Sequence record: OR427838.1
Strand: one strand, 5' to 3'
Length of the DNA: 64,000 nucleotides
From: Escherichia phage fDHCT2
The translations under genes and the position numbers were made by a program. The notes beneath the pieces were generated by a model. That model ran no database searches and was not told the DNA's origin. It saw only the letters and a program-made list of their open reading frames with translations. This document shows positions 11,376 to 19,758 of this stretch, one piece after another. The first letter of the stretch is position 1. Each line of letters opens with the position of its first letter.

Positions 11376-11399
11376 AAAGGAGAGCGTACGCTCTCCTTT
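11376..11399. terminator. Bidirectional intrinsic terminator (perfect 24-nt palindrome)
   Basis: aaaggagagcgtacgctctccttt between convergent gene 54 (+) and the minus-strand alt-side operon; A-run upstream and T-run downstream on both strands. Confidence 0.7.
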
Positions 11400-11405
11400 A
11401 GGGGT

Positions 11406-11696
11406 TTACTTACGGAACGAAATGAAACCTGCTGCAGTCATTAATGGCTGCTTTTTAACAAAGACTGTAATAGAAATAGGAGCTTCAGATTCGAGTTGTC
11501 CTGTCACTACACCGTTAAAAATGTTTTCGGTTTGTTCTGGATAAGAAAAATTCTCAACAGGTCGGATATCAAACTGTTTGTCTTCACCAAAAACTCGACG
11601 TAATTCATTACCTACGGCACTGTCAAACTCTTCGGAAGCAGGGATAACGTTTTCAACTACCAGTTCTTGACCATTAAAACGGAATGCAGATTTCAT
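11406..11696 (-). CDS. Hypothetical protein (96 aa)
   Basis: ORF with early promoter and SD GAGGAGAACATT upstream; terminator downstream. Confidence 0.55.
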   Translation of the reverse strand: MKSAFRFNGQELVVENVIPASEEFDSAVGNELRRVFGEDKQFDIRPVENFSYPEQTENIFNGVVTGQLESEAPISITVFVKKQPLMTAAGFISFRK

Positions 11697-11724: not shown

Positions 11725-11754
11725 ATAGTACCACATCCTTGTGGTGTTGTAAAC
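11725..11754 (-). promoter_or_regulatory. T4-type early promoter (minus strand)
   Basis: Minus strand: GTTTAC-18 bp-TACTAT; spacer contains inverted repeat ccaca/tgtgg. Confidence 0.5.
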
Positions 11755-13877
11755 TACATTTTGAATTTATTTGATAAAGAAGAGATATCCAAAGACGCTG
11801 CAAGGATTTCCATAGCTTCGTTGCTTTCAGAAACGGATTCATTAACCAAGAATTGTCTAAATCCATCCATCAGGCGAACTTCACCAGTTTCCATCAAATG
11901 GTCACCATCGTAAACAGATTCGCTGAGCTCTGAAAGAGGTGTTACGGTAGCTTCCATAAGGTATTTGTGAGATACTCTATCATTCATGGCAAAAGCCGCT
12001 ACTTTATCAACCTTCAACAATAATCCGCGCGGAAGGATAATTTCTGCTTCTTCGGCATATTCTGTAAGGTCACCAGGAGCGATAACTTTAACTGCTTCAG
12101 CACCTCGAATAACCATACCAATTTCAGCAATTCTATCCGCAGGACCTTCAGGTGCAATTGGATTACCGAACTCGTCTTCTTCCCATTCTACCTCTTCGTC
12201 ATCGACTTCACCCACATCAGATGAACTACCGCTAGCCAATTTAAACAACTCATCAGCGGAGGATAAAGAACCTTCGCCGCCAACAAAAACGGCTTGGTTG
12301 TCGAGGGCCATATAATTTTTACCAAATTCACCAAAGATGTTAGGCTTTAATGAGGCTGACACAAAGTTCTTAAAGTAAAATGTTTTGTTATCGATATTAT
12401 GGCGCAGAATTTTGTATGGCAAATCCTGACCACGATACAAAATAGTACCCTTAGGAAGTTTAATACCCTTAGTAAATGCTGAGTCTAAATCCTTAATCAA
12501 TTTAATAGCCGTTGTATTGTTTTCGGATTCAGGTTTACCTAAAAGGAATAAGTTCATAGGAGCATATTCAGCCGCGCAATATTCAATAATAGCATTGCTT
12601 TCGTCTTTGGTTAGGTCCTTAGGTTTAATGAGCTCGCCTGAATAAGCATATGCATCACTAATAGAATCGTTAACCAGTTTATAAACGGCTTCCATAGCGA
12701 AAGCAATTCGAGAGGCCTTTTCTGAAGGGGAACCCTTAAAACGGGTACTCAGGTTATTAACAATTTTCTTAATAATATCCAGACTATTGGTTGTATTGAT
12801 TTGCGAAAGACCACTTAAAAGTCTATCGACTTCTGTATTAAAAAATGCCATATTATTAGAGTAAATTTCAAACCCTTGTTTATCTCTATTAGCATAATTT
12901 AGTTTAAATTTACTATCAGTCATTAAAGCGTGTGTGAGAGCAATAGTGTATCTAAAGTTGGCAAGGTCCTCGCTCTTAGATTTAAACTGAGAAGCCTGGC
13001 GCATTTTAGTAATAGCACCTTTTTTAAAGTTCTGGCTAATCTGTTCAATACCTTCATTCTCAGGGCCTTCAGCCGTGTGAACCGGTACAGAAGCTTCAAA
13101 CTCGTTATAAACCTGCAATTCTTTAGGGGACAAAGTTTCAGGCTCAGCAGTAGAATACTGCGCGGCTGCTGCCATACGACGGGAAATCTTAGTACGGGTA
13201 ATGACAGACTTATCAGTACGTTTCTCTTCAACTTGTGCAATAGATGCCGCTACTGCTTCGACCTTACTTACGGCCTGGCCGGTTTTCTTAGAAACATACA
13301 CTTCGCCAACTTTAGACTCAACTTTAGTATAAAGATCGGCATTAATTTCAGGCATACCCTTGATATCTTCAATATTAGCACCACGACGTACTAAAAGAAC
13401 GTAGGTATGTTTTCCGCTGAATTGGAACATGTCGTCAACAACTTTAAACTTACCACCGGTACGAGCCATAGCCAAACGAGCTAATACGCGCTGAACGGTA
13501 GGGCCTTTACCTTTCATTTTCTTAGTAGGGAAACGGAATAAAACCGCGTCCATTTTAAGTTTGTTTATTTGTTCATATATGGTATCGAAAATGGTGTTCA
13601 GTGTACCGAGTGGATCGGTACCCAAACCGCCCTTGAGTTCTGCCGGAGCGCCTTTAGCAGATAAACTCATTAAGATAACATGGACGTACTTATCGCCCGC
13701 CTTAACCATCTTAATAGCGTCGCCTTCAGACGCATAAGATACCATACGTGCTACTAAATTGTCATTACCAGGAGCATGTACCGCAAAAATCTGCGGTACG
13801 CCTGAGCCAGGTTTAAGATTTGTTACTGGGTAATTTTTTTTATCGCTTTTATCAAAAACTTCGTTTAAATTTTCCAT
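11754..13877 (-). CDS. Alt-like ADP-ribosyltransferase paralog (707 aa), predicted capsid-packaged
   Basis: N-terminal about 230 aa nearly identical to the two upstream copies; C-terminal ART-like motifs YRGQ, SAS, EAEIILPRG; unique central and extreme C-terminal regions. Confidence 0.75.
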   Translation of the reverse strand: MENLNEVFDKSDKKNYPVTNLKPGSGVPQIFAVHAPGNDNLVARMVSYASEGDAIKMVKAGDKYVHVILMSLSAKGAPAELKGGLGTDPLGTLNTIFDTIYEQINKLKMDAVLFRFPTKKMKGKGPTVQRVLARLAMARTGGKFKVVDDMFQFSGKHTYVLLVRRGANIEDIKGMPEINADLYTKVESKVGEVYVSKKTGQAVSKVEAVAASIAQVEEKRTDKSVITRTKISRRMAAAAQYSTAEPETLSPKELQVYNEFEASVPVHTAEGPENEGIEQISQNFKKGAITKMRQASQFKSKSEDLANFRYTIALTHALMTDSKFKLNYANRDKQGFEIYSNNMAFFNTEVDRLLSGLSQINTTNSLDIIKKIVNNLSTRFKGSPSEKASRIAFAMEAVYKLVNDSISDAYAYSGELIKPKDLTKDESNAIIEYCAAEYAPMNLFLLGKPESENNTTAIKLIKDLDSAFTKGIKLPKGTILYRGQDLPYKILRHNIDNKTFYFKNFVSASLKPNIFGEFGKNYMALDNQAVFVGGEGSLSSADELFKLASGSSSDVGEVDDEEVEWEEDEFGNPIAPEGPADRIAEIGMVIRGAEAVKVIAPGDLTEYAEEAEIILPRGLLLKVDKVAAFAMNDRVSHKYLMEATVTPLSELSESVYDGDHLMETGEVRLMDGFRQFLVNESVSESNEAMEILAASLDISSLSNKFKM

Positions 13878-13880
13878 TAT

Positions 13881-15929
13881 TTACCCTTGGGTGAATTTTT
13901 CTGGGGTTTCGTCAAAATTAATACATGAAGCTAAAATAGGCATTATATCCACCTTGGTCGATTTGACGAATGAATCAAAAGACACAGGGTTGTCGGTCTC
14001 TGTTTCTACGCCTTGGTAAACAACCAATTCGCCGGTTTCCATCAATGCATCACCATCGTAGATAACCGCATTTTCTGCTAGTTGGTCTGTGGTCTGGATA
14101 TCAGCTTCCAATAATTTGGTGTTGTAGTTTCCTTTATATGAGGCATCTGTAATTTTAGTAATCTTAACAGTAGTTCCACGTGGAAGAATAACCTCTTGTT
14201 CTGTTGGAGAACCTGACAATTCACCAGGCACAATTACGTTAATAGAGTCTGCACCGGAAATTTTCCAGCCGACGTTCATCATTGTATTTTCGGAACTCGT
14301 CAGCATACTTGGAAGAACAATTTCATTATCGCCTTGGAAAGATGTCCCAACGCGATAGTCCTGATGAACTGCGGCCATTGCGACGTTTGATACCCAGCCA
14401 CCAAAGATAATCGGCTTAAGGGACGTTGATACATAGTTCCTGAAATAAAACAATTTTGAGTGTTTGATTTTATCAAAAGTGTTAACATTTAAATATTGAC
14501 CACGCCAAAGTGTAATATCAGGTGGCAATTTATGGCCAATTTCAAATGCCGCGTCCATATCATTAATTACTTCAATTACACGCTGACTATCAATGAATTC
14601 TGCATCCTCTTCATAATAATTACCCAACAAATAATTATTAACATCGGTATAATATTGGCCGCAATAAGAAGAAATAGCCTCACGCTGCTCATACTCAAAT
14701 CGATTATCGCTATAACTGGCTGTAAAATGCATAACACTTTCTGACGCTTCATTAGCAAAGTCGGTAACAGCAGCACTTATACGTTGAGCATACTCTTGTT
14801 CCCAAAGCTCTGCTGCATAAGTGGCTGCATCCAGGTTAGGAGGAGCCTCATTCATTTTTCTTTCGATAAATGCAGCTTTGCGAAGGTTAAGAACCTCTGC
14901 ACATGATTCGGCAAAAATCTGCATCTGCTTCATACTGCCGACAGGAGCACGTTTAAGTTCACGATGCATACGGTTAAAAATTGGGTCAGAGTCTTCGACC
15001 CGAATTTCTTCTTTCCAAACACCGTTTGCTCGCATAGCCATATCTGCCGCGCGCATACGCTCCATAGTATTCGTTTCAGAAGGTTGAATAAAAATTTCTA
15101 GTTCTTCATAATCATCGATAAGTTCCGCTGTTGCTGGGGCACTAAATTTTGATGCCTCTGCATCAATCTCATTCCAACCTTCCGGAACTTCATCTCGAGG
15201 AGAATACTGGGCTGCGGCTACAGCACGCCTAGAAATCTTGGTAGTGGTAATAACAGCCTTATCCGTACGTTTTTCTTCGACTGCCGCTATACTAGCAGAT
15301 AGTGCTTCTATTTTGGTTACTGATTGGCCTGTTTTCTTGGATACATAAACCTCACCAACTTTAGACTCAACCTTAGTGTAAAGGTCTGCATCAATTTCAG
15401 GCATACCTTTTATGTCCTCAATATTAGCTTGTTTACGAACCAGTAAAACGTATGTATGTTTGCCTGTAAATTGATACATATCATCGACAACTTTAAACTT
15501 GCCGCCAGTACGAGCCATCGCCAATCGTGCCAATACACGTTGAACAGTAGGACCCTTACCTTTCATTTTCTTGGTAGGGAACCGGAAAAGAACTGCATCC
15601 ATTTTAAGTTTGTTTACTTGTTCGTATACAGTATCAAAAATGGTATTCAGCGTACCAAGTGGGTCAGAACCTAACCCGCCTTTCAGCTCGGCTGGGGTAC
15701 CCTTAGCAGACAAACTCATCAAAATAACATGAACATATTTGTCGCCAGGCTTAACCATTTTAATAGCGTCTCCTTGAGACGCATAAGATACCATACGAGC
15801 CACCAGATTATCATTACCTGGTGCTTGGATAGAGAAAATCTGTGGAACACTGGAACCCGGTTTAAGATTTGTTACTGGATAGTTTTTAGCGGAATCACTA
15901 TCAAAAACCTCGTTTAAATTTTCCATCAT
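13881..15929 (-). CDS. Alt-like ADP-ribosyltransferase paralog (682 aa)
   Basis: Shares N-terminus with neighbours; motifs WRGQ, STS, EQEVILPRG; C-terminal tail ..PEKFTQG shared with alt. Confidence 0.8.
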   Translation of the reverse strand: MMENLNEVFDSDSAKNYPVTNLKPGSSVPQIFSIQAPGNDNLVARMVSYASQGDAIKMVKPGDKYVHVILMSLSAKGTPAELKGGLGSDPLGTLNTIFDTVYEQVNKLKMDAVLFRFPTKKMKGKGPTVQRVLARLAMARTGGKFKVVDDMYQFTGKHTYVLLVRKQANIEDIKGMPEIDADLYTKVESKVGEVYVSKKTGQSVTKIEALSASIAAVEEKRTDKAVITTTKISRRAVAAAQYSPRDEVPEGWNEIDAEASKFSAPATAELIDDYEELEIFIQPSETNTMERMRAADMAMRANGVWKEEIRVEDSDPIFNRMHRELKRAPVGSMKQMQIFAESCAEVLNLRKAAFIERKMNEAPPNLDAATYAAELWEQEYAQRISAAVTDFANEASESVMHFTASYSDNRFEYEQREAISSYCGQYYTDVNNYLLGNYYEEDAEFIDSQRVIEVINDMDAAFEIGHKLPPDITLWRGQYLNVNTFDKIKHSKLFYFRNYVSTSLKPIIFGGWVSNVAMAAVHQDYRVGTSFQGDNEIVLPSMLTSSENTMMNVGWKISGADSINVIVPGELSGSPTEQEVILPRGTTVKITKITDASYKGNYNTKLLEADIQTTDQLAENAVIYDGDALMETGELVVYQGVETETDNPVSFDSFVKSTKVDIMPILASCINFDETPEKFTQG

Positions 15930-18014
15930 TTACCCTTGGATGAATTTTTCTGGGATGTCATAGAGGTCTATGCATGAAGCCAAAAGAGGCAATACATCAA
16001 ACCGTGTAGATTTAACAAATGAATCAAAAGATACAGGGCTTTCGGAAGTATCGAAGTCATCTTGATATACGACCAACTCGCCGGTTTCCATTAGTACGTC
16101 ACCATCATATACCACAGATTCTTGAAGCTCATCTGTTGTCATAACTTCAGCTTGGATGAGTTTTGTATTACTAGATGTTGTTCCATCATTATTAGAAGAA
16201 TCTGTTATTTTATTAACTTTGACCATTAATCCACGCGGTAGAATAACTTCGGCTTCAGTTGCTATTCCGAGATTTCCTGGATATACGACATTAACTTTAT
16301 GAGCCCCATCAATAGCCCATCCTATTTGAACTTTAACATAATCAGGATTTTCTTTATATGCTCTTATTTCATTAGGATTAATAGTTATTCCTTCTTCATT
16401 TTTATCGACTGTCAATTCATTGCGAACTTCCGGTTCTAAAAGACCAATACCTGCGTGGGTAACACCAAAACGTCCAAAAATGATAGGAGTTAAAGAAGTA
16501 GATACAAAATTTCTGAAATAGAACACTTTATTTTTAACTAGTGCTTCGTATATAGGAGCAGTCATACTCTGAGCACGATAAACTGTGATGCCCTCTGGTA
16601 TACGGTCGCCATTTTCAAAAGCAGAATCCAAATTATTAACCGCGGATTCGATATCTTTTTCGCTCATAACCTCATAGTTCTGAGGATTATAACGTCCTAA
16701 AAGAAGATTATTTATGTCTGTATATCCTGAACCACAATATTCTCTGATGCCGCGCTTTTGTGATGGGGTATATTTAGAGCCCTCACGAGCAATAGTAATA
16801 TCGACCATAATACCGCCACCCACACCAGCAAAACTATATACACGTTTTTTAATGAACTTGGTCTTGGCGGCTTTCCACTTCGCATCGGTCAATTCATTCC
16901 AGAGGTCGTCAGGTTGGCCTTTACGAGTTTTGTTATGCCAGGCCAGCCATTCACCTTTGTATTCTTCGAAAACGGTATTAATAGCAGAGGCATATTTTTC
17001 TAGAGCTTTAACAGATGTCAAAGGTTCGTTTTTGATGGCCGTAAGAATTTTATCTTTAATTTTCTCTTGGATTTCACCTATACCGTGAAGAGGAAACATT
17101 TTATAATCGTAATGCAATTCTTCAGCCGTGCCTTCAGCCACTATATTAGCAACCTTATTTTTAGCCGCAGGAGAATTGTTATTAGTAACCATTTCCTGAG
17201 CCTCAGGGATTAATGGAACTGTTGCAGGTTTATTAAAATCTGCTGCAGTAGCTTCATATTTCTTAAACAATTCACTTTCATTACGATAAGATTCCAATGA
17301 TTGGCTTGCTGCAATGGCGCGCCTAGAAATCTTAGTCTTGGTTATAACCATTTTATCAGTGCGACGTTCTTCAACCTTAGCAATACTGCTGGCAATAGCA
17401 GTTTCTTTAGTAACCTGCACACCTTCTTTTTTGGAAATATAAACTTCACCGACATCAGAATCTACCTTAGTATACAATTCAGCATTAATTCCAGGCATAC
17501 CTTTGATATCTTCGATATCAGCTTGTTTACGAACTACTAAGATGTAAGTATGTTTACCGGTAAATTGGTACATAGCCGGAACCACTTTAAAACGTCCACC
17601 GGTTTTCTGTGCTACCAAACGTTGGATAATCCGTTGGACAATAGGTCCTTGTCCTTTCATTTTCTTGGTAGGAAAACGGAACATCACGGCATCCATACGA
17701 AGCTTTTTAACTTGGTCATAAACCACATCAAAAATAGTATTAATCGCATCTACAGGAGTAGGGCCAAGGCCACCTTTAAGTTCGGCTGGAGTACCTTTAG
17801 CCGATAAGCTCATTAAAATTACATGAGCATATTTATCGCCTAATTTAACTTGTTTGATTGCGTCGCCTTCAGAAGCATAAGAAACCATACGTGCTACTAA
17901 TTGGGACTCTACGCCACCAATCTTCCAAATCTGCGGTACTTTAAGTTTAGGGTTCAAGTTTACTGTAGGCAGTGTGCCTTCGGACTCAAACACTTCATTT
18001 AATTGTTCGGTCAT
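15930..18014 (-). CDS. alt: Alt ADP-ribosyltransferase (closest to T4 Alt), 694 aa
   Basis: Full-length similarity to recalled T4 Alt (SQSLESYR.., SKYTPSQKRGIREYCGSGYTDINN, YRAQ, FVSTSL, EAEVILPRGLMVKVNKITD, ..KFIQG). Confidence 0.85.
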   Translation of the reverse strand: MTEQLNEVFESEGTLPTVNLNPKLKVPQIWKIGGVESQLVARMVSYASEGDAIKQVKLGDKYAHVILMSLSAKGTPAELKGGLGPTPVDAINTIFDVVYDQVKKLRMDAVMFRFPTKKMKGQGPIVQRIIQRLVAQKTGGRFKVVPAMYQFTGKHTYILVVRKQADIEDIKGMPGINAELYTKVDSDVGEVYISKKEGVQVTKETAIASSIAKVEERRTDKMVITKTKISRRAIAASQSLESYRNESELFKKYEATAADFNKPATVPLIPEAQEMVTNNNSPAAKNKVANIVAEGTAEELHYDYKMFPLHGIGEIQEKIKDKILTAIKNEPLTSVKALEKYASAINTVFEEYKGEWLAWHNKTRKGQPDDLWNELTDAKWKAAKTKFIKKRVYSFAGVGGGIMVDITIAREGSKYTPSQKRGIREYCGSGYTDINNLLLGRYNPQNYEVMSEKDIESAVNNLDSAFENGDRIPEGITVYRAQSMTAPIYEALVKNKVFYFRNFVSTSLTPIIFGRFGVTHAGIGLLEPEVRNELTVDKNEEGITINPNEIRAYKENPDYVKVQIGWAIDGAHKVNVVYPGNLGIATEAEVILPRGLMVKVNKITDSSNNDGTTSSNTKLIQAEVMTTDELQESVVYDGDVLMETGELVVYQDDFDTSESPVSFDSFVKSTRFDVLPLLASCIDLYDIPEKFIQG

Positions 18015-18049
18015 AATAATTCCTCTTTAATAACCTTATTTATGCCAGA

Positions 18050-18067
18050 AAAGGCCCGAAGGCCTTT
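18050..18067 (-). terminator. UUCG-tetraloop terminator upstream of alt
   Basis: aaaggcccgaaggccttt; minus-strand RNA hairpin followed by UUUUCUGG; then SD AAAGAGGAA for alt. Confidence 0.6.
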
Positions 18068-18068
18068 A

Positions 18069-18251
18069 TTAAAGTACTAACAACGTACGGTACACTTCAA
18101 ATTTAGGACCCTTTTCATAGCGGTCGAAATTATCTTTAAAATCGGCGAACGCGATTTCATTTTCAAATTCAAGGACAATTTGGGACACTGTGGTGGAGAC
18201 ATCGCCACCTTCTTTATATCCAATAACCACGGTTTCTAAATAAGCTTTCAT
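18069..18251 (-). CDS. Hypothetical small protein (about 60 aa)
   Basis: ORF between ligase and alt; first codon of the long ORF appears to be TTG; start placed at ATG one nt after the ligase stop (alternative ATG at 18287). Confidence 0.4.
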   Translation of the reverse strand: MKAYLETVVIGYKEGGDVSTTVSQIVLEFENEIAFADFKDNFDRYEKGPKFEVYRTLLVL

Positions 18252-18252
18252 A

Positions 18253-19758
18253 TTATAGTCCAGTTTGAGACCAATCGCCAAATACATCTTCAAATGTATC
18301 AGCTTCTGTTTTATCGAAACGCCAACCTTTAATAATTGGAAGGAAAATACCTACAGTATCAGTACGTCCTTTAGAATGAACCCAACCATTACATTCGCAG
18401 TCAGCAATACGACCAATCAATTTACCTTCACGGGCTTGTTTCATAAGAAGTTCACGGTCTAAATCAGGACGGTCTTCTAATGGAATCAATACCTTTTTAC
18501 CTGATTTATCTTTCTTATGGGTGGTATCTTTAAAGCCTGAGCCACAGTCACTTGTAATTCGACGACAACGTGATACCAATTCGACACCGCCAAGTTTGTT
18601 AGGGTCCTTCGAGTGTTCATAATAACCCACTACTTCTAAAGCGATATCGATTACTTCTTTGAACTTGATAAGATTCTTAGAACGGCGGTTTTCCCAGTAG
18701 GAGTCCATGTTCTTAAGGATAATGCCTTCCAGGCCCTGGTCGACATATTTCTTATAAACGACTTTAGCTTCGTCAAGATTATTAACCCATTGCGTTTCTA
18801 TAGGCTCGGCACGTGTAAAACCTTCAGCCATTTGTACTAATGCCGCTAAACGAACATCGTATTTTTGACCTTTAATTTTGCCTTCAGAATAAACTTCATC
18901 CAGTGGAACAAAGTCCCATGCCTGTAATACCATACCATCAGCTTCAGCTGGAGTAATAGTTCCTTGAAGAGCTTTATTAGCCAAACCATTTGAAGTAGAA
19001 CGGTCGGCGACTGTCTGGAATTCCTTGGCTTTACTTAATTCCGGAAGTTCTTCATCAAACATACTAAACAAATCATTAGATGCTTTCGGTTCAACCTTAG
19101 GCGTGTGGTAAACTAATTCGCCATCAATCATAACACCATTAGGATGGCGCTGACGAGCTTCTTCAGTCATTTTAATAAGTTCGGCTGCAAGCTTAGTAAG
19201 CCCTTGATATTCATTACCACCGCGAGTAAGGAATGTTACCCCATCGTTACGAACTTCAGCAAAACAACGGGCACCGTCAGCTTTTAATTGAGCGAACGCC
19301 GGCCATTTAATATTTTTCTTAATTAGAGCTTCGTCATAAGAACTAGCCAACATTTGAGGTTGTTCAGGAATTAAACCTTTCCAAACCTTGTTAGCAATAG
19401 AAATCGATGCACCACATTCAAGGTCGCGCATCATTACACGACGTAGTACCTCAGCGTCTGGACCCTTGGCATCGGCGATAATTTGGGCAAGTTCTTCAAT
19501 AGCAGCATTACCTGTAATCTTACGGGTTGCTAGTGTGAACTCAGCGAAATCAAGAAGGTCTTCAAGTGTAATCATACCAAAGGATTGAGACGTAAATCCA
19601 GGTTCTGGCCACTTTTTGATGCCGTAGTTCAAACGACGGGTATAAGCCATACGATATACACGTTTCAGAAGCTCATTATCCTTTTCACGGGCAATAATAG
19701 CTTCTTTAGCTTTAGTAGAATCAATAGAAGCAATTTCGTTTAAAATATCTAAAATCAT
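18253..19758 (-). CDS. 30: ATP-dependent DNA ligase (gp30)
   Basis: 501 aa; strong similarity to recalled T4 DNA ligase incl. adenylation motif FAQLKADGARCF and C-terminal ..ECNGW..DGRTD..FEDVFGD. Confidence 0.95.
   Translation of the reverse strand: MILDILNEIASIDSTKAKEAIIAREKDNELLKRVYRMAYTRRLNYGIKKWPEPGFTSQSFGMITLEDLLDFAEFTLATRKITGNAAIEELAQIIADAKGPDAEVLRRVMMRDLECGASISIANKVWKGLIPEQPQMLASSYDEALIKKNIKWPAFAQLKADGARCFAEVRNDGVTFLTRGGNEYQGLTKLAAELIKMTEEARQRHPNGVMIDGELVYHTPKVEPKASNDLFSMFDEELPELSKAKEFQTVADRSTSNGLANKALQGTITPAEADGMVLQAWDFVPLDEVYSEGKIKGQKYDVRLAALVQMAEGFTRAEPIETQWVNNLDEAKVVYKKYVDQGLEGIILKNMDSYWENRRSKNLIKFKEVIDIALEVVGYYEHSKDPNKLGGVELVSRCRRITSDCGSGFKDTTHKKDKSGKKVLIPLEDRPDLDRELLMKQAREGKLIGRIADCECNGWVHSKGRTDTVGIFLPIIKGWRFDKTEADTFEDVFGDWSQTGL

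Follow-up and report, generated by a model that had tools for sequence, protein, structure and literature searches.

Alt proteins of T-even phages

Alt of phage T4 is an arginine-specific mono-ADP-ribosyltransferase that resides in the prohead core and is injected together with the DNA. The protein is cleaved at ITE-6 and LTE-619, with removal of 63 C-terminal residues (PMC5694885). About 40 copies of this prohead-core protein are present, and a small N-terminal peptide is lost (PMC9958956). Alt homologues have also been found by mass spectrometry in virions of other Tevenvirinae (PMC6563131; PMC5384007), and tandem alt paralogues were already remarked upon in 2006 (PMC1524935).

A tandem array of three alt genes in phage fDHCT2

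The window analyzed here (64,000 nucleotides of Escherichia phage fDHCT2, OR427838.1) belongs to a Dhakavirus and shares 97% DNA identity with phages C6 and QL01, including a three-gene alt array. The GenBank records of both phages already annotate three Alt-like genes. The array is thus real but not new, and what is added here is its anatomy (chassis, cleavage motifs, and cassette). Three alt-like open reading frames of 694, 682, and 707 aa abut on the minus strand, exactly where a preliminary description of this DNA had placed three consecutive genes of these lengths:

15930..18014, minus strand: proximal alt gene P694 (694 aa), open reading frame in the position of JS98 altA, with a T2-Alt-type cassette
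13881..15929, minus strand: middle alt gene M682 (682 aa), open reading frame, extra copy
11754..13877, minus strand: distal alt gene D707 (707 aa), open reading frame of the JS98 altB type

The intergenic gaps are 0 and 3 nt, and M682 is 681 aa long in the annotation of its relatives, where the second ATG is used. All three products match PF03496 (ADPrib_exo_Tox) above the Pfam gathering score (E-values of 7.6e-36 for P694, 2e-21 for M682, and 4e-17 for D707) and, from end to end, PHROG 802 (‘Alt-like’). Only the proximal copy had been thought to align completely with T4 Alt. In fact all three align end to end (48% identity for P694, 36% for M682, and 34% for D707), but a clear central similarity is indeed restricted to P694. 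All three belong to the T4 Alt family and have its full length.

The array lies between gp54 and the DNA ligase gene, as alt does in T4, and the gene order is that of T4 (gp29-gp48-gp54 / alt.-3 / alt / alt.1 / gp30). The surrounding features are:

11376-11399: terminator-like hairpin of the alt.-3 homologue
11406..11696, minus strand: alt.-3 homologue (96 aa), downstream of the array
11725-11753: early-type promoter-like site of the alt.-3 homologue
18021-18027, minus strand: Shine-Dalgarno sequence AAGAGGA, as read from the sequence
18037..18067, minus strand: putative upstream control region, hairpin AAAGGCCTTCGGGCCTTT (18050-18067) followed by CATAAATA (18037-18044)
18069..18251, minus strand: alt.1 homologue (60 aa, ATG at 18251), between the DNA ligase gene and the array
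18253-19758: DNA ligase gene, beyond the alt.1 homologue

At the homologous place, T4 carries an identical hairpin, followed by the late-promoter box TATAAATA; no other TATAAATA occurs near the array. The first base of the promoter-like box CATAAATA does not agree with the T4 consensus, which we counted against the explanation preferred below. AAGGG precedes the ATG of both downstream alt genes, which abut on the preceding gene.

Domain organization and catalytic residues

The three proteins can be divided into the following parts, all encoded on the minus strand:

17319..18014, minus strand: N-terminal domain of P694 (aa 1-232), with the L-N-E motif at aa 5-7
15225-15929, minus strand: N-terminal domain of M682, equivalent of P694 aa 1-232
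13176-13877, minus strand: N-terminal domain of D707, equivalent of P694 aa 1-232
16119..17318, minus strand: effector cassette of P694 (aa 233-632; linker, all-helical centre, and ART domain, to LQE-632)
14073-15224, minus strand: effector cassette of M682, ending at LAE-619
11919-13175, minus strand: effector cassette of D707, ending at LSE-653
15933..16118, minus strand: predicted C-terminal propeptide of P694 (62 aa, starting SVVYDGDVLMETGE), aligned with the T4 Alt tail
13884-14072, minus strand: predicted C-terminal propeptide of M682 (63 aa), equivalent of the P694 tail
11757-11918, minus strand: predicted C-terminal propeptide of D707 (54 aa), equivalent of the P694 tail

The N-terminal domain has an alpha/beta fold (modelled with a pLDDT of about 80-93), has PF26846 ‘Tevenvirinae_ADPRT’ as its Pfam counterpart (an assignment precomputed for near-identical homologues), and is N-terminal without exception in the 71 representative clusters found. 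The centres of D707 and P694 are modelled with a similar all-helical layout of 7-8 helices. After the L-x-E site, the C-terminal propeptide starts with the invariant YDGDxLMETGE. The N-domain (~235 aa) and the C-propeptide (about 54-63 aa) form a chassis, both parts of which track the phage lineage.

The R / S-T-S / E-x-E signature of ADP-ribosyltransferases, as put forward in the preliminary description, is complete in each copy, with no catalytic residue lost: YRAQ480, STS505, and EAE587-589 in P694; WRGQ476, STS501, and EQE577-579 in M682; YRGQ482, SAS507, and EAE610-612 in D707. In an alignment of the three copies with T4 Alt, R, S-x-S, and E-x-E are unvarying. Even D707, the most divergent copy, is modelled by AlphaFold2 as an ART fold (pLDDT 80), and this model matches Vis, C3, Certhrax, CDTa, and VIP2 (Foldseek E-values from 3e-7 to 1e-4; target TM 0.6-0.69). 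These data support all three as genuine Alt-family R-S-ExE ADP-ribosyltransferases with predicted activity. We should note two peculiarities of D707, both counted against the preferred explanation: S-A-S replaces S-T-S, and an acidic insertion of 25 aa, modelled with low confidence, lies in its ART domain.

Similarity among the three copies

The N-terminal ~232 aa, earlier called almost identical, share 88% identity between M682 and D707 and only 67-70% between P694 and either of them. They are followed by a hypervariable central zone of ~165-175 aa (roughly aa 243-410) with 10-18% identity between copies. The centres had been described as unrelated over about 250 aa, which overstates the length of the zone and holds for D707 only: no sequence or profile similarity to the P694 and M682 centres was found for its centre (z about 0-1; hhalign probability 28% over 27 columns). 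The P694 and M682 centres are distant homologues, judging from their direct Smith-Waterman comparison (z = 5), their common BLAST relatives, and their similarity to T4 Alt (z = 32 for P694 and 12 for M682). The ART domains are only 34-36% identical between copies and therefore do not form a conserved constant part. A central ‘substrate module’ preceding a constant catalytic domain was considered and rejected, as the ART domain is swapped too.

The 3′ strings previously reported as near-identical are present verbatim at 13874 and 15923 and agree at 30 of 33 positions, but the resemblance is strong over about 30 nt only (69% identity over the wider 338 nt). These 30 nt encode the end of the C-propeptide (PEKF-x-QG), the stop, the Shine-Dalgarno-like AAGGG, and the start of the next alt gene. 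Conservation of these elements is a more mundane reading than the substrate for domain shuffling that had been proposed.

Predicted processing and packaging

The motifs that align with the T4 cleavage sites are LNE-6/7 at the N-terminus and LQE-632 (P694), LAE-619 (M682), and LSE-653 (D707) at the C-terminal side. The best explanation of the array, which we consider likely, is that it encodes three functional Alt paralogues with a shared four-part plan, which are packaged, trimmed, and injected and have distinct targets. The plan starts with a short predicted N-terminal propeptide, up to and including L-N-E, and continues with an alpha/beta N-domain (~225 aa) that is specific to the lineage. 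Then come an effector cassette comprising an all-helical centre (~170 aa) and the R-S-ExE ART domain, and a predicted C-propeptide of 54-63 aa after the L-x-E site. The three genes may be co-transcribed from one late promoter-like site and translationally coupled. Packaging of their products would rely on the conserved end parts, and trimming by the prohead protease would leave mature proteins of about 68-71 kDa. Once delivered to the cell, the three enzymes would ADP-ribosylate host proteins, with targets that differ from copy to copy. For the individual copies, packaging, injection, and differing substrates are suggested by the conserved N- and C-terminal protease motifs.

It is also conceivable, though unlikely, that M682 and D707 are active but unpackaged and act late inside the producing cell, like ModA and ModB, given that the only Alt proteins with demonstrated packaging are T4 Alt itself and, in a few phages, single homologues. 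However, every copy retains the full N-domain, both L-x-E sites, and the YDGDxLMETGE propeptide, a combination that would be pointless in any protein other than a head component cut by the prohead protease. Furthermore, the N-domain and the C-propeptide are inherited with the phage lineage even as the cassettes move, which is what a need to fit the phage's own head-assembly machinery would predict for these end parts.

Exchange of effector cassettes

Pairwise comparisons reveal opposite patterns within and between genera. P694 and JS98 AltA are nearly identical at the ends (N-domain 97%, C-propeptide 98%) and differ in between (centre 33%, ART domain 61%), and the same holds for T4 versus T2 Alt (N-domain 99%, centre 29%, ART domain 61%, C-propeptide 94%). 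Conversely, P694 and T2 Alt are most similar in the cassette (N-domain 44%, centre 65%, ART domain 94%, C-propeptide 52%), as are M682 and the second Alt of Gaprivervirus P896 (N-domain 41%, centre 84%, ART domain 76%, C-propeptide 61%). The N-domain of the proximal copy is 94-98% identical across dhakaviruses, even beside cassettes of only 33% identity, and the M682 N-domain shares 88-94% identity with those of dhakavirus AltB proteins. The D707 cassette is 97-100% identical across dhakaviruses; D707 shares 46% (centre), 61% (ART domain), and 67% (C-propeptide) with the second Alt of T2, and ~400 further T-even records, mainly of Escherichia, Shigella, and Yersinia phages, match its cassette at ~49% identity and 96-97% coverage.

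In the four pairs compared at the nucleotide level (P694 with JS98 altA, T4 with T2 alt, P694 with T2 alt, and M682 with P896), identity breaks at gene nt ~700-780 and ~1800-1850; between T4 and T2 alt it drops abruptly from 95-100% to 33-83% before rising again to 87-98%. Sharp nucleotide breakpoints thus delimit a cassette, made up of the central domain and the ART domain, that is exchanged between alleles and between genera. The modular exchange anticipated in the preliminary description is borne out by these breakpoints and the cross-genus identities, but the unit is the centre plus the ART domain, sometimes each separately. The end parts behave like a chassis inherited with the phage lineage. 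The cassette types are probably ancient and far diverged, and recombine among alleles, paralogues, and the genera Tequatrovirus, Dhakavirus, and Gaprivervirus.

Alternatively, the copies could have diverged rapidly in place after duplication under diversifying selection, with no swap of pre-existing cassettes. The models of D707 and P694 share the helical layout of the centre, and the full-length D707 model superimposes on the sequence-dissimilar SP18 624-aa type (TM 0.74/0.83); such likenesses would fit one ancestral domain that strongly diverged. In addition, the N-domains of the three copies are clear paralogues. We nevertheless regard this as quite unlikely, in view of the abrupt identity steps (e.g., T4 versus T2 alt), the contrasts between cassette and N-domain (94% for the ART domain against 44% for P694 and T2; 84% for the centre against 41% for M682 and P896), and the purifying rather than diversifying selection on every cassette type.

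Conservation of the extra copies

All three genes are intact and under purifying selection, with dN/dS values of 0.03-0.18 for both N-domains and cassettes. The number of copies varies among dhakaviruses: JS98, IME281, and dhaeg contain two and miss the middle gene, while WG01 and ABTNLS3 have three, the third being of a different 631-aa type that is proximally placed. Besides alt, T2 encodes a second full-length Alt-like gene with a cassette of the AltB type, so a tandem pair of A-type and B-type genes is common to Tequatrovirus and Dhakavirus. T4 alt.-1 and alt.-2 correspond, at 95-96% identity, to residues 1-116 of this second T2 Alt, and ~1.7 kb of T2 is missing from T4. They are the stump of a deleted second alt copy, and a tandem alt pair is the usual state in T-even phages. 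That T4 has a single alt copy was also counted against the preferred explanation.

We consider it highly unlikely that P694 is the only working Alt and that the other two copies are redundant and decaying like alt.-1/alt.-2. Such decay has a precedent in T4, where the second copy shrank to two small open reading frames and alt is non-essential (PMC9026906), and the distal copy of one relative, vB_EcoM_005, has lost ExE-ILPRG through a 33-aa in-frame deletion, so that this phage, at least, can do without it. In fDHCT2, however, all three reading frames and catalytic triads are complete, each copy shows the low dN/dS given above, and the D707 cassette is conserved at 97-100% in dhakaviruses, occurs in a full-length gene in T2, and has ~400 T-even matches. 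An assembly or duplication artefact, suggested only by the repetitive nature of the locus, is ruled out for practical purposes by the low overall identity between copies (only 40-50%, with distinct centres) and by the recurrence of the identical array and boundaries in the independently deposited records of C6, QL01, MX01, AnYang, UGJNEcP3, and KIT01.

Comparison with known systems

The closest structural matches to the catalytic domain are the toxins C3, Vis, Certhrax, CDTa, and VIP2, which share the R-S-E motif set and PF03496 with the array. Sequence identity is only 13-18%, these toxins do not contain the phage N-domain, helical centre, or propeptide, and their delivery relies on secretion or binary-toxin translocation rather than on a capsid.

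Polymorphic toxins and MuF-effector fusions (PMC3482391, PMC9503650) likewise combine a conserved delivery part with interchangeable, recombining enzymatic effectors. Their variable effector is C-terminal, whereas in the alt array the effector sits between two conserved parts. Unlike in polymorphic toxins, nearly all cassette alternatives found are ARTs of one family, and the array has neither immunity genes nor orphan cassettes but only full-length tandem paralogues. The alt N-domain is not MuF, and the likeness is one of working principle, not of family membership.

T4 Alt (Alt/VIP2 family, R-S-E clade) resembles the copies of the array in overall length, four-part plan, R / S-x-S / E-x-E, and the N- and C-terminal protease-site motifs, and its gene in genomic slot, upstream hairpin, and late-promoter position. 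T4 has one copy versus three in fDHCT2, a deletion having left only the first 116 codons of the second, and the closest fDHCT2 copy, P694, is only 48% identical, with a cassette much nearer to T2 Alt (ART domain 94%) than to T4 Alt (ART domain 59%). The T2 pair has genus-specific N-domains, with 42-44% identity between genera and 67-68% between both T2 copies. The Dhakavirus JS98 encodes two alt genes at the same locus: altB is the counterpart of D707 (97-99% in the cassette), while altA carries a different cassette allele inside 97-98% identical ends. The dhakaviruses QL01, MX01, C6, AnYang, and KIT01 have annotated triple Alt arrays at the same locus.

Organization of the alt locus

The minus strand of the Escherichia phage fDHCT2 window carries three tandem alt genes. 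Their products are referred to here as P694, M682 and D707 (proximal, middle and distal copy, named after their length). The array and its flanking genes are the following:

15930-18014, minus strand: P694, ORF of 694 aa
13881-15929, minus strand: M682, ORF of 682 aa
11754-13877, minus strand: D707, ORF of 707 aa
11406-11696: alt.-3, flank of the array
18069-18251: alt.1, flank of the array
18253-19758: DNA ligase gene gp30, flank of the array

The inter-ORF spacers are 0 and 3 nt. The flanking genes also include gp29, gp48 and gp54, which are encoded on the plus strand. The slot occupied by the array, from gp29-48-54/alt.-3 to alt.1/DNA ligase gp30, is ordered as in the alt region of T4. An NCBIfam scan of the three Alt proteins, alt.-3 and alt.1 matched no family. 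Two ATG codons in a row (15924-15929) directly follow the TAA of P694, the second being the M682 start as annotated in relatives (681 aa).

Over 6.9 kb, the region shows 97% identity to the Escherichia phages C6 and QL01 and 94-96% to MX01 and AnYang, all members of the genus Dhakavirus. Their records already annotate three genes as ‘Alt-like RNA polymerase ADP-ribosyltransferase,’ while two alt genes (altA and altB) are present in JS98, JS10, IME08, IME281, and dhaeg. The triple array is therefore real and known to the databases, and the assembly duplication that the preliminary description had raised as an alternative is rejected. The novelty that it assigned to the array was likewise too high, given these annotations and the tandem alt paralogues of RB49, 44RR, and T4 that were noted in 2006 (PMC1524935).

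Upstream of P694 we found, in order, the alt.1 stop codon, a hairpin AAAGGCCTTCGGGCCTTT, the octamer CATAAATA (18037-18044, minus strand), a Shine-Dalgarno sequence and the ATG. The T4 counterpart has the same hairpin followed by the late-promoter box TATAAATA; CATAAATA, which lies at the homologous position, differs from this box by one mismatch. On the minus strand around the array, the exact T4 box was not found, nor was any late box other than CATAAATA, which we infer to be a candidate late promoter of the array. The abutting genes suggest a single late transcript with translational coupling of the three copies. Between the D707 stop codon and alt.-3, an early-type promoter-like site (11725-11753, minus strand; TTTACA, 17 nt, TACTAT, and an upstream TG) suggests separate expression of alt.-3 and the array. 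Downstream of alt.-3 is a terminator-like hairpin.

Catalytic domain and predicted fold

The ADP-ribosyltransferase (ART) assignment made in the preliminary description holds for all three genes. The Pfam family PF03496 (ADPrib_exo_Tox) matches the three copies with 62.7, 77.0, and 123.7 bits (gathering threshold 23.4), and PHROG 802 (‘Alt-like’) spans each protein from the first residue to the last. All three contain the R / S-x-S / E-x-E set of the arginine-specific R-S-E clade: R480, S505, and E587/E589 in P694 (YRAQ/STS/EAE), R476, S501, and E577/E579 in M682 (WRGQ/STS/EQE), and R482, S507, and E610/E612 in D707 (YRGQ/SAS/EAE), the last with S-A-S instead of S-T-S. The columns of T4 R478, Q480, S503, S505, E574, and E576 are invariant in an alignment of the window copies with T4 Alt and both Alt proteins of the two-copy dhakavirus JS98 (AltA and AltB).

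Structure prediction agrees with this assignment. For D707, which diverges most and is of the AltB type, AlphaFold2 gave a model with a mean pLDDT of 80 and a pTM of 0.72. Foldseek aligns the part of it from residue ~424 to 645 with Vis toxin, C3 exoenzymes, Certhrax, CDTa, and VIP2 (E 3e-7 to 1e-4, target-normalized TM 0.6-0.69). A sequence search of the PDB brought up no solved Alt structure, just weak matches (E ~1e-3) to two enzymes of binary toxins, BECa and CdtA. By family and motif, and for D707 also by predicted fold, P694, M682, and D707 are thus all Alt-family ADP-ribosyltransferases, with predicted activity. [quoted passage not shown] The ART domain of D707 also contains an acidic insertion, VGEVDDEEVEWEEDEFG (aa 552-577; window 12147-12224), between the S-x-S and ExE strands, with a pLDDT below 50 and missing in P694 and M682.

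Conserved ends and diverse centers

For the domain-wise identities, 38 Alt proteins encoded in the window and at 15 related loci were aligned with MAFFT.

Sequence identity among the three window copies, by domain
N-terminal domain (~232 aa): M682/D707 88%; P694 vs either 67-70%
Central zone (aa ~243-410): 10-18%
ART domain (up to ExE-ILPRG): 34-36%
Tail (past ILPRG): 31-59%

The N-terminal domains are 42-44% identical to that of T4 Alt (z 78-92), and the PHROG 802 coverage starts at position 1. The corresponding Pfam family PF26846 (Tevenvirinae_ADPRT, ~230 aa) is precomputed on homologues that are 95-99% identical to the window proteins.

T4 Alt is a prohead-core protein of ~40 copies that is trimmed by the gp21 protease, and both its incorporation in the prohead core and its injection with the DNA are established (PMC9958956, PMC9026906). 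Its cuts were mapped by mass spectrometry in 2017 at ITE-6 and LTE-619, the latter removing 63 C-terminal residues (PMC5694885). In the window proteins L-N-E is kept at residues 5-7 or 4-6, and an L-x-E occurs at the T4-aligned C-terminal position (LQE-632 in P694, LAE-619 in M682, LSE-653 in D707), immediately followed by an invariant YDGDxLMETGE. The predicted mature forms of P694, M682, and D707 span aa 8-632, 8-619, and 7-653, with V8, V8, and V7 as their N-termini, and have masses of 69.5, 68.3, and 71.2 kDa, respectively. By analogy with T4, the conserved ends would be packaging and processing parts, and cleavage of the window copies by gp21 is predicted. Single Alt homologues have been detected by mass spectrometry in virions of other Tevenvirinae (PMC6563131, PMC5384007).

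The preliminary description had also pointed to near-identical 3′ ends of two copies. This is correct for 30 of 33 positions in the strings at 13874 and 15923, but past these ~30 nt the identity is 69%. The strings are the ends of the predicted C-terminal propeptide; they encode PEKF-x-QG and the stop codon, a Shine-Dalgarno-like AAGGG and the conserved start of the following alt gene.

The models of D707 and P694 show an alpha/beta N-domain, then linker helices and an all-helical center with eight and seven helices, respectively. The centers had been described as unrelated, which does not hold for P694 and M682: a direct Smith-Waterman comparison gives z = 5, comparison with T4 Alt gives z 32 (P694) and 12 (M682), and both centers share BLAST relatives among 116 database homologues. 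On sequence, these two are distant homologues. For D707 the claim is unproven. Its center has no sequence similarity to those of P694 and M682 in Smith-Waterman comparisons (z 0-1), and a profile-profile hhalign of the D707 type against the T4/P694/M682 type yields a probability of 28% over 27 columns, so that homology cannot be demonstrated by sequence. Yet the full-length D707 model superimposes on the BFVD model of the 624-aa Alt of Shigella phage SP18 (TM 0.74/0.83, 697 columns). The center of the 624-aa protein of Gaprivervirus phage P896 is 99% identical to that of SP18 and 13% to that of D707. A helical architecture common to Alt centers is therefore likely, as judged from the models.

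Segment-wise mosaicism and cassette exchange

In the following, the N-domain (~235 aa) and the C-terminal propeptide are called the chassis, and the helical center with the ART domain the cassette. The two parts give discordant identities, both inside a genus and from one genus to another.

Segment-wise identities between Alt proteins (N-domain; center; ART domain; C-propeptide)
P694 vs JS98 AltA: 97%; 33%; 61%; 98%
T4 Alt vs T2 Alt: 99%; 29%; 61%; 94%
P694 vs T2 Alt: 44%; 65%; 94%; 52%
M682 vs second Alt of P896: 41%; 84%; 76%; 61%
D707 vs second Alt of T2: 43%; 46%; 61%; 67%

Compared with the AltB N-domains of dhakaviruses, that of M682 shows 88-94% identity. A T4-like cassette (center 60%, ART 78% identity to T4) occurs in one database homologue, the ADP-ribosylase of Escherichia phage Bp7 (684 aa; named as in its source), whose N-domain is just 41% identical to that of T4.

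At the nucleotide level, identity breaks at ~nt 700-780 and ~nt 1800-1850 of the gene. Along alt, T4 and T2 share 95-100% before the first break, 33-83% between the two and 87-98% after the second; for P694 and JS98 altA the corresponding values are 84-98%, 38-76%, and 87-96%. These breakpoints and the discordant segments bear out the modular recombination that had been proposed for the locus. Between P694 and T2, the ART-coding part is 82-98% identical and the center 60-80%; center and ART can therefore have separate histories as well.

The dN/dS values of 0.03-0.18 in the N-domains and cassettes of every copy indicate purifying selection. Pseudogenization of the alt copies is rejected on these values, and so is decay as the source of their diversity. 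Runaway diversification in place is rejected on the breakpoints, the discordance between chassis and cassette and the purifying selection, which together lead us to explain the diversity as exchange among old cassette types. A full-text literature search found no paper on alt cassette exchange or on three-copy arrays, an absence that is no proof, and yielded just reviews of Alt besides the 2006 note on paralogues and the 2017 cleavage mapping; we consider the segment-wise mosaic structure the main addition to what is known of the array.

Distribution of Alt types

The Alt N-domain occurs at 1816 places in 1201 phage records. When 1.84 billion representative proteins were scanned in full, just 71 clusters contained it, always N-terminally and, with few exceptions, in proteins 600-712 aa long. 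Depending on the cassette, 445-825 public phage records match those of the window. The P694 cassette matches ~320 records at ~82% identity; among the matches listed, these are T-even coliphage genomes of ~165-170 kb with a T2-like alt. The D707 (AltB) cassette type is found at ~49% identity in ~400 records, those listed being mainly T-even phages of Escherichia, Shigella, and Yersinia. Its position is separate from the first alt wherever both were mapped; in T2, the only case followed over its whole length, it belongs to a second full-length gene adjoining alt (locus L016, 3239-5296).

The T4 genes alt.-1 and alt.-2 (locus L003, 5066-5451) are 95-96% identical to residues 1-116 of this second T2 gene, and ~1.7 kb of the T2 region is missing from T4. 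These remnants and the missing stretch argue for a single-alt state of T4 derived by deletion. Read from these comparisons, a tandem alt pair is the usual T-even state and T4 a deletion derivative.

Phages WG01 and ABTNLS3 have a different three-gene array. Its extra gene (locus L009, 8072-9967, in WG01; locus L011, 6072-7967, in ABTNLS3) encodes a 631-aa type, and SP18 and P896 (locus L015, 6001-7875) have a related gene of 624 aa. This fourth Alt type has its own center and its own ART domain (~37-42% identity to other types), and its C-terminal tail is different, shorter and devoid of YDGDxLMETGE. In Gaprivervirus and some dhakaviruses, the gene of this type is the proximal one.

Several single cases depart from the usual layout. 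The distal alt of vB_EcoM_005 (locus L014, 1855-3879) encodes a 674-aa AltB type that is 97-99% identical to D707 outside an in-frame deletion of 33 aa; the deletion takes out ExE-ILPRG, and the protein is probably catalytically dead though still full length. In Acinetobacter phages ZZ1 and Henu6 (BFVD matches) a ‘split RNA polymerase ADP-ribosylase’ is annotated, i.e., Alt as two genes. Four rare distant relatives, P0170 (1142 aa; metagenomic contig, locus L017, 552-3980), P0172, P0167, and P0168, contain the Alt N-domain and no Pfam ART match. Beyond its N-domain, P0170 has ~930 residues of unassigned sequence with the ART-like motif fragments LYRYQG and NASMKP, and the cargo of such proteins may be of another kind or degenerate.

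Proposed role and comparison with toxin systems

As an enzyme that a phage injects together with its DNA, Alt is the textbook case, and knowledge of it comes almost entirely from T4. The host proteins that T4 Alt modifies include the toxin MazF. Such targets are reportedly many (PMC5512222).

The best-supported reading of the array is that the three genes would be co-expressed and each copy packaged in the head, trimmed by the protease and injected as an arginine ADP-ribosyltransferase, on a phage-specific chassis common to the three copies and with different, horizontally exchanged effector cassettes; packaging and targets are predicted. We put forward a wider proposal only tentatively, and consider it rather doubtful: the N-domain and C-propeptide might be a general capsid-delivery chassis of T-even phages, and the cassettes a shared, swappable pool of injected effectors with differing host targets, possibly including defense proteins, so that the number of copies (a single one in T4, two each in T2 and JS98, three in the window) and the choice of cassette would tune takeover to the host strain. 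The four relatives without a Pfam-detectable ART are a hint of possible further kinds of cargo on this chassis.

The array is an already annotated locus, correctly read, and no new kind of system. What it illustrates is that most T-even relatives of T4 encode two Alt enzymes, and some encode three, which differ deeply but have a putative packaging chassis in common, with cassettes that cross genera. If the copies differ in their targets, the first seconds of host takeover would be more varied and strain-specific than in the T4 model. The junctions at ~aa 235-250 and at the L-x-E before YDGDxLMETGE would be natural sites for engineering cargo into T4-type capsids.

Polymorphic-toxin-like systems differ from the alt locus in their cognate immunity genes and silent orphan cassettes. 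Neither was found beside the array, which consists of full-length genes only, with alt.-3, alt.1, and the ligase gene as neighbors; we therefore compare the locus with polymorphic toxin systems and do not class it as one. The likeness lies in a conserved delivery part that is combined with alternative effector modules, with breakpoints found at their junctions.
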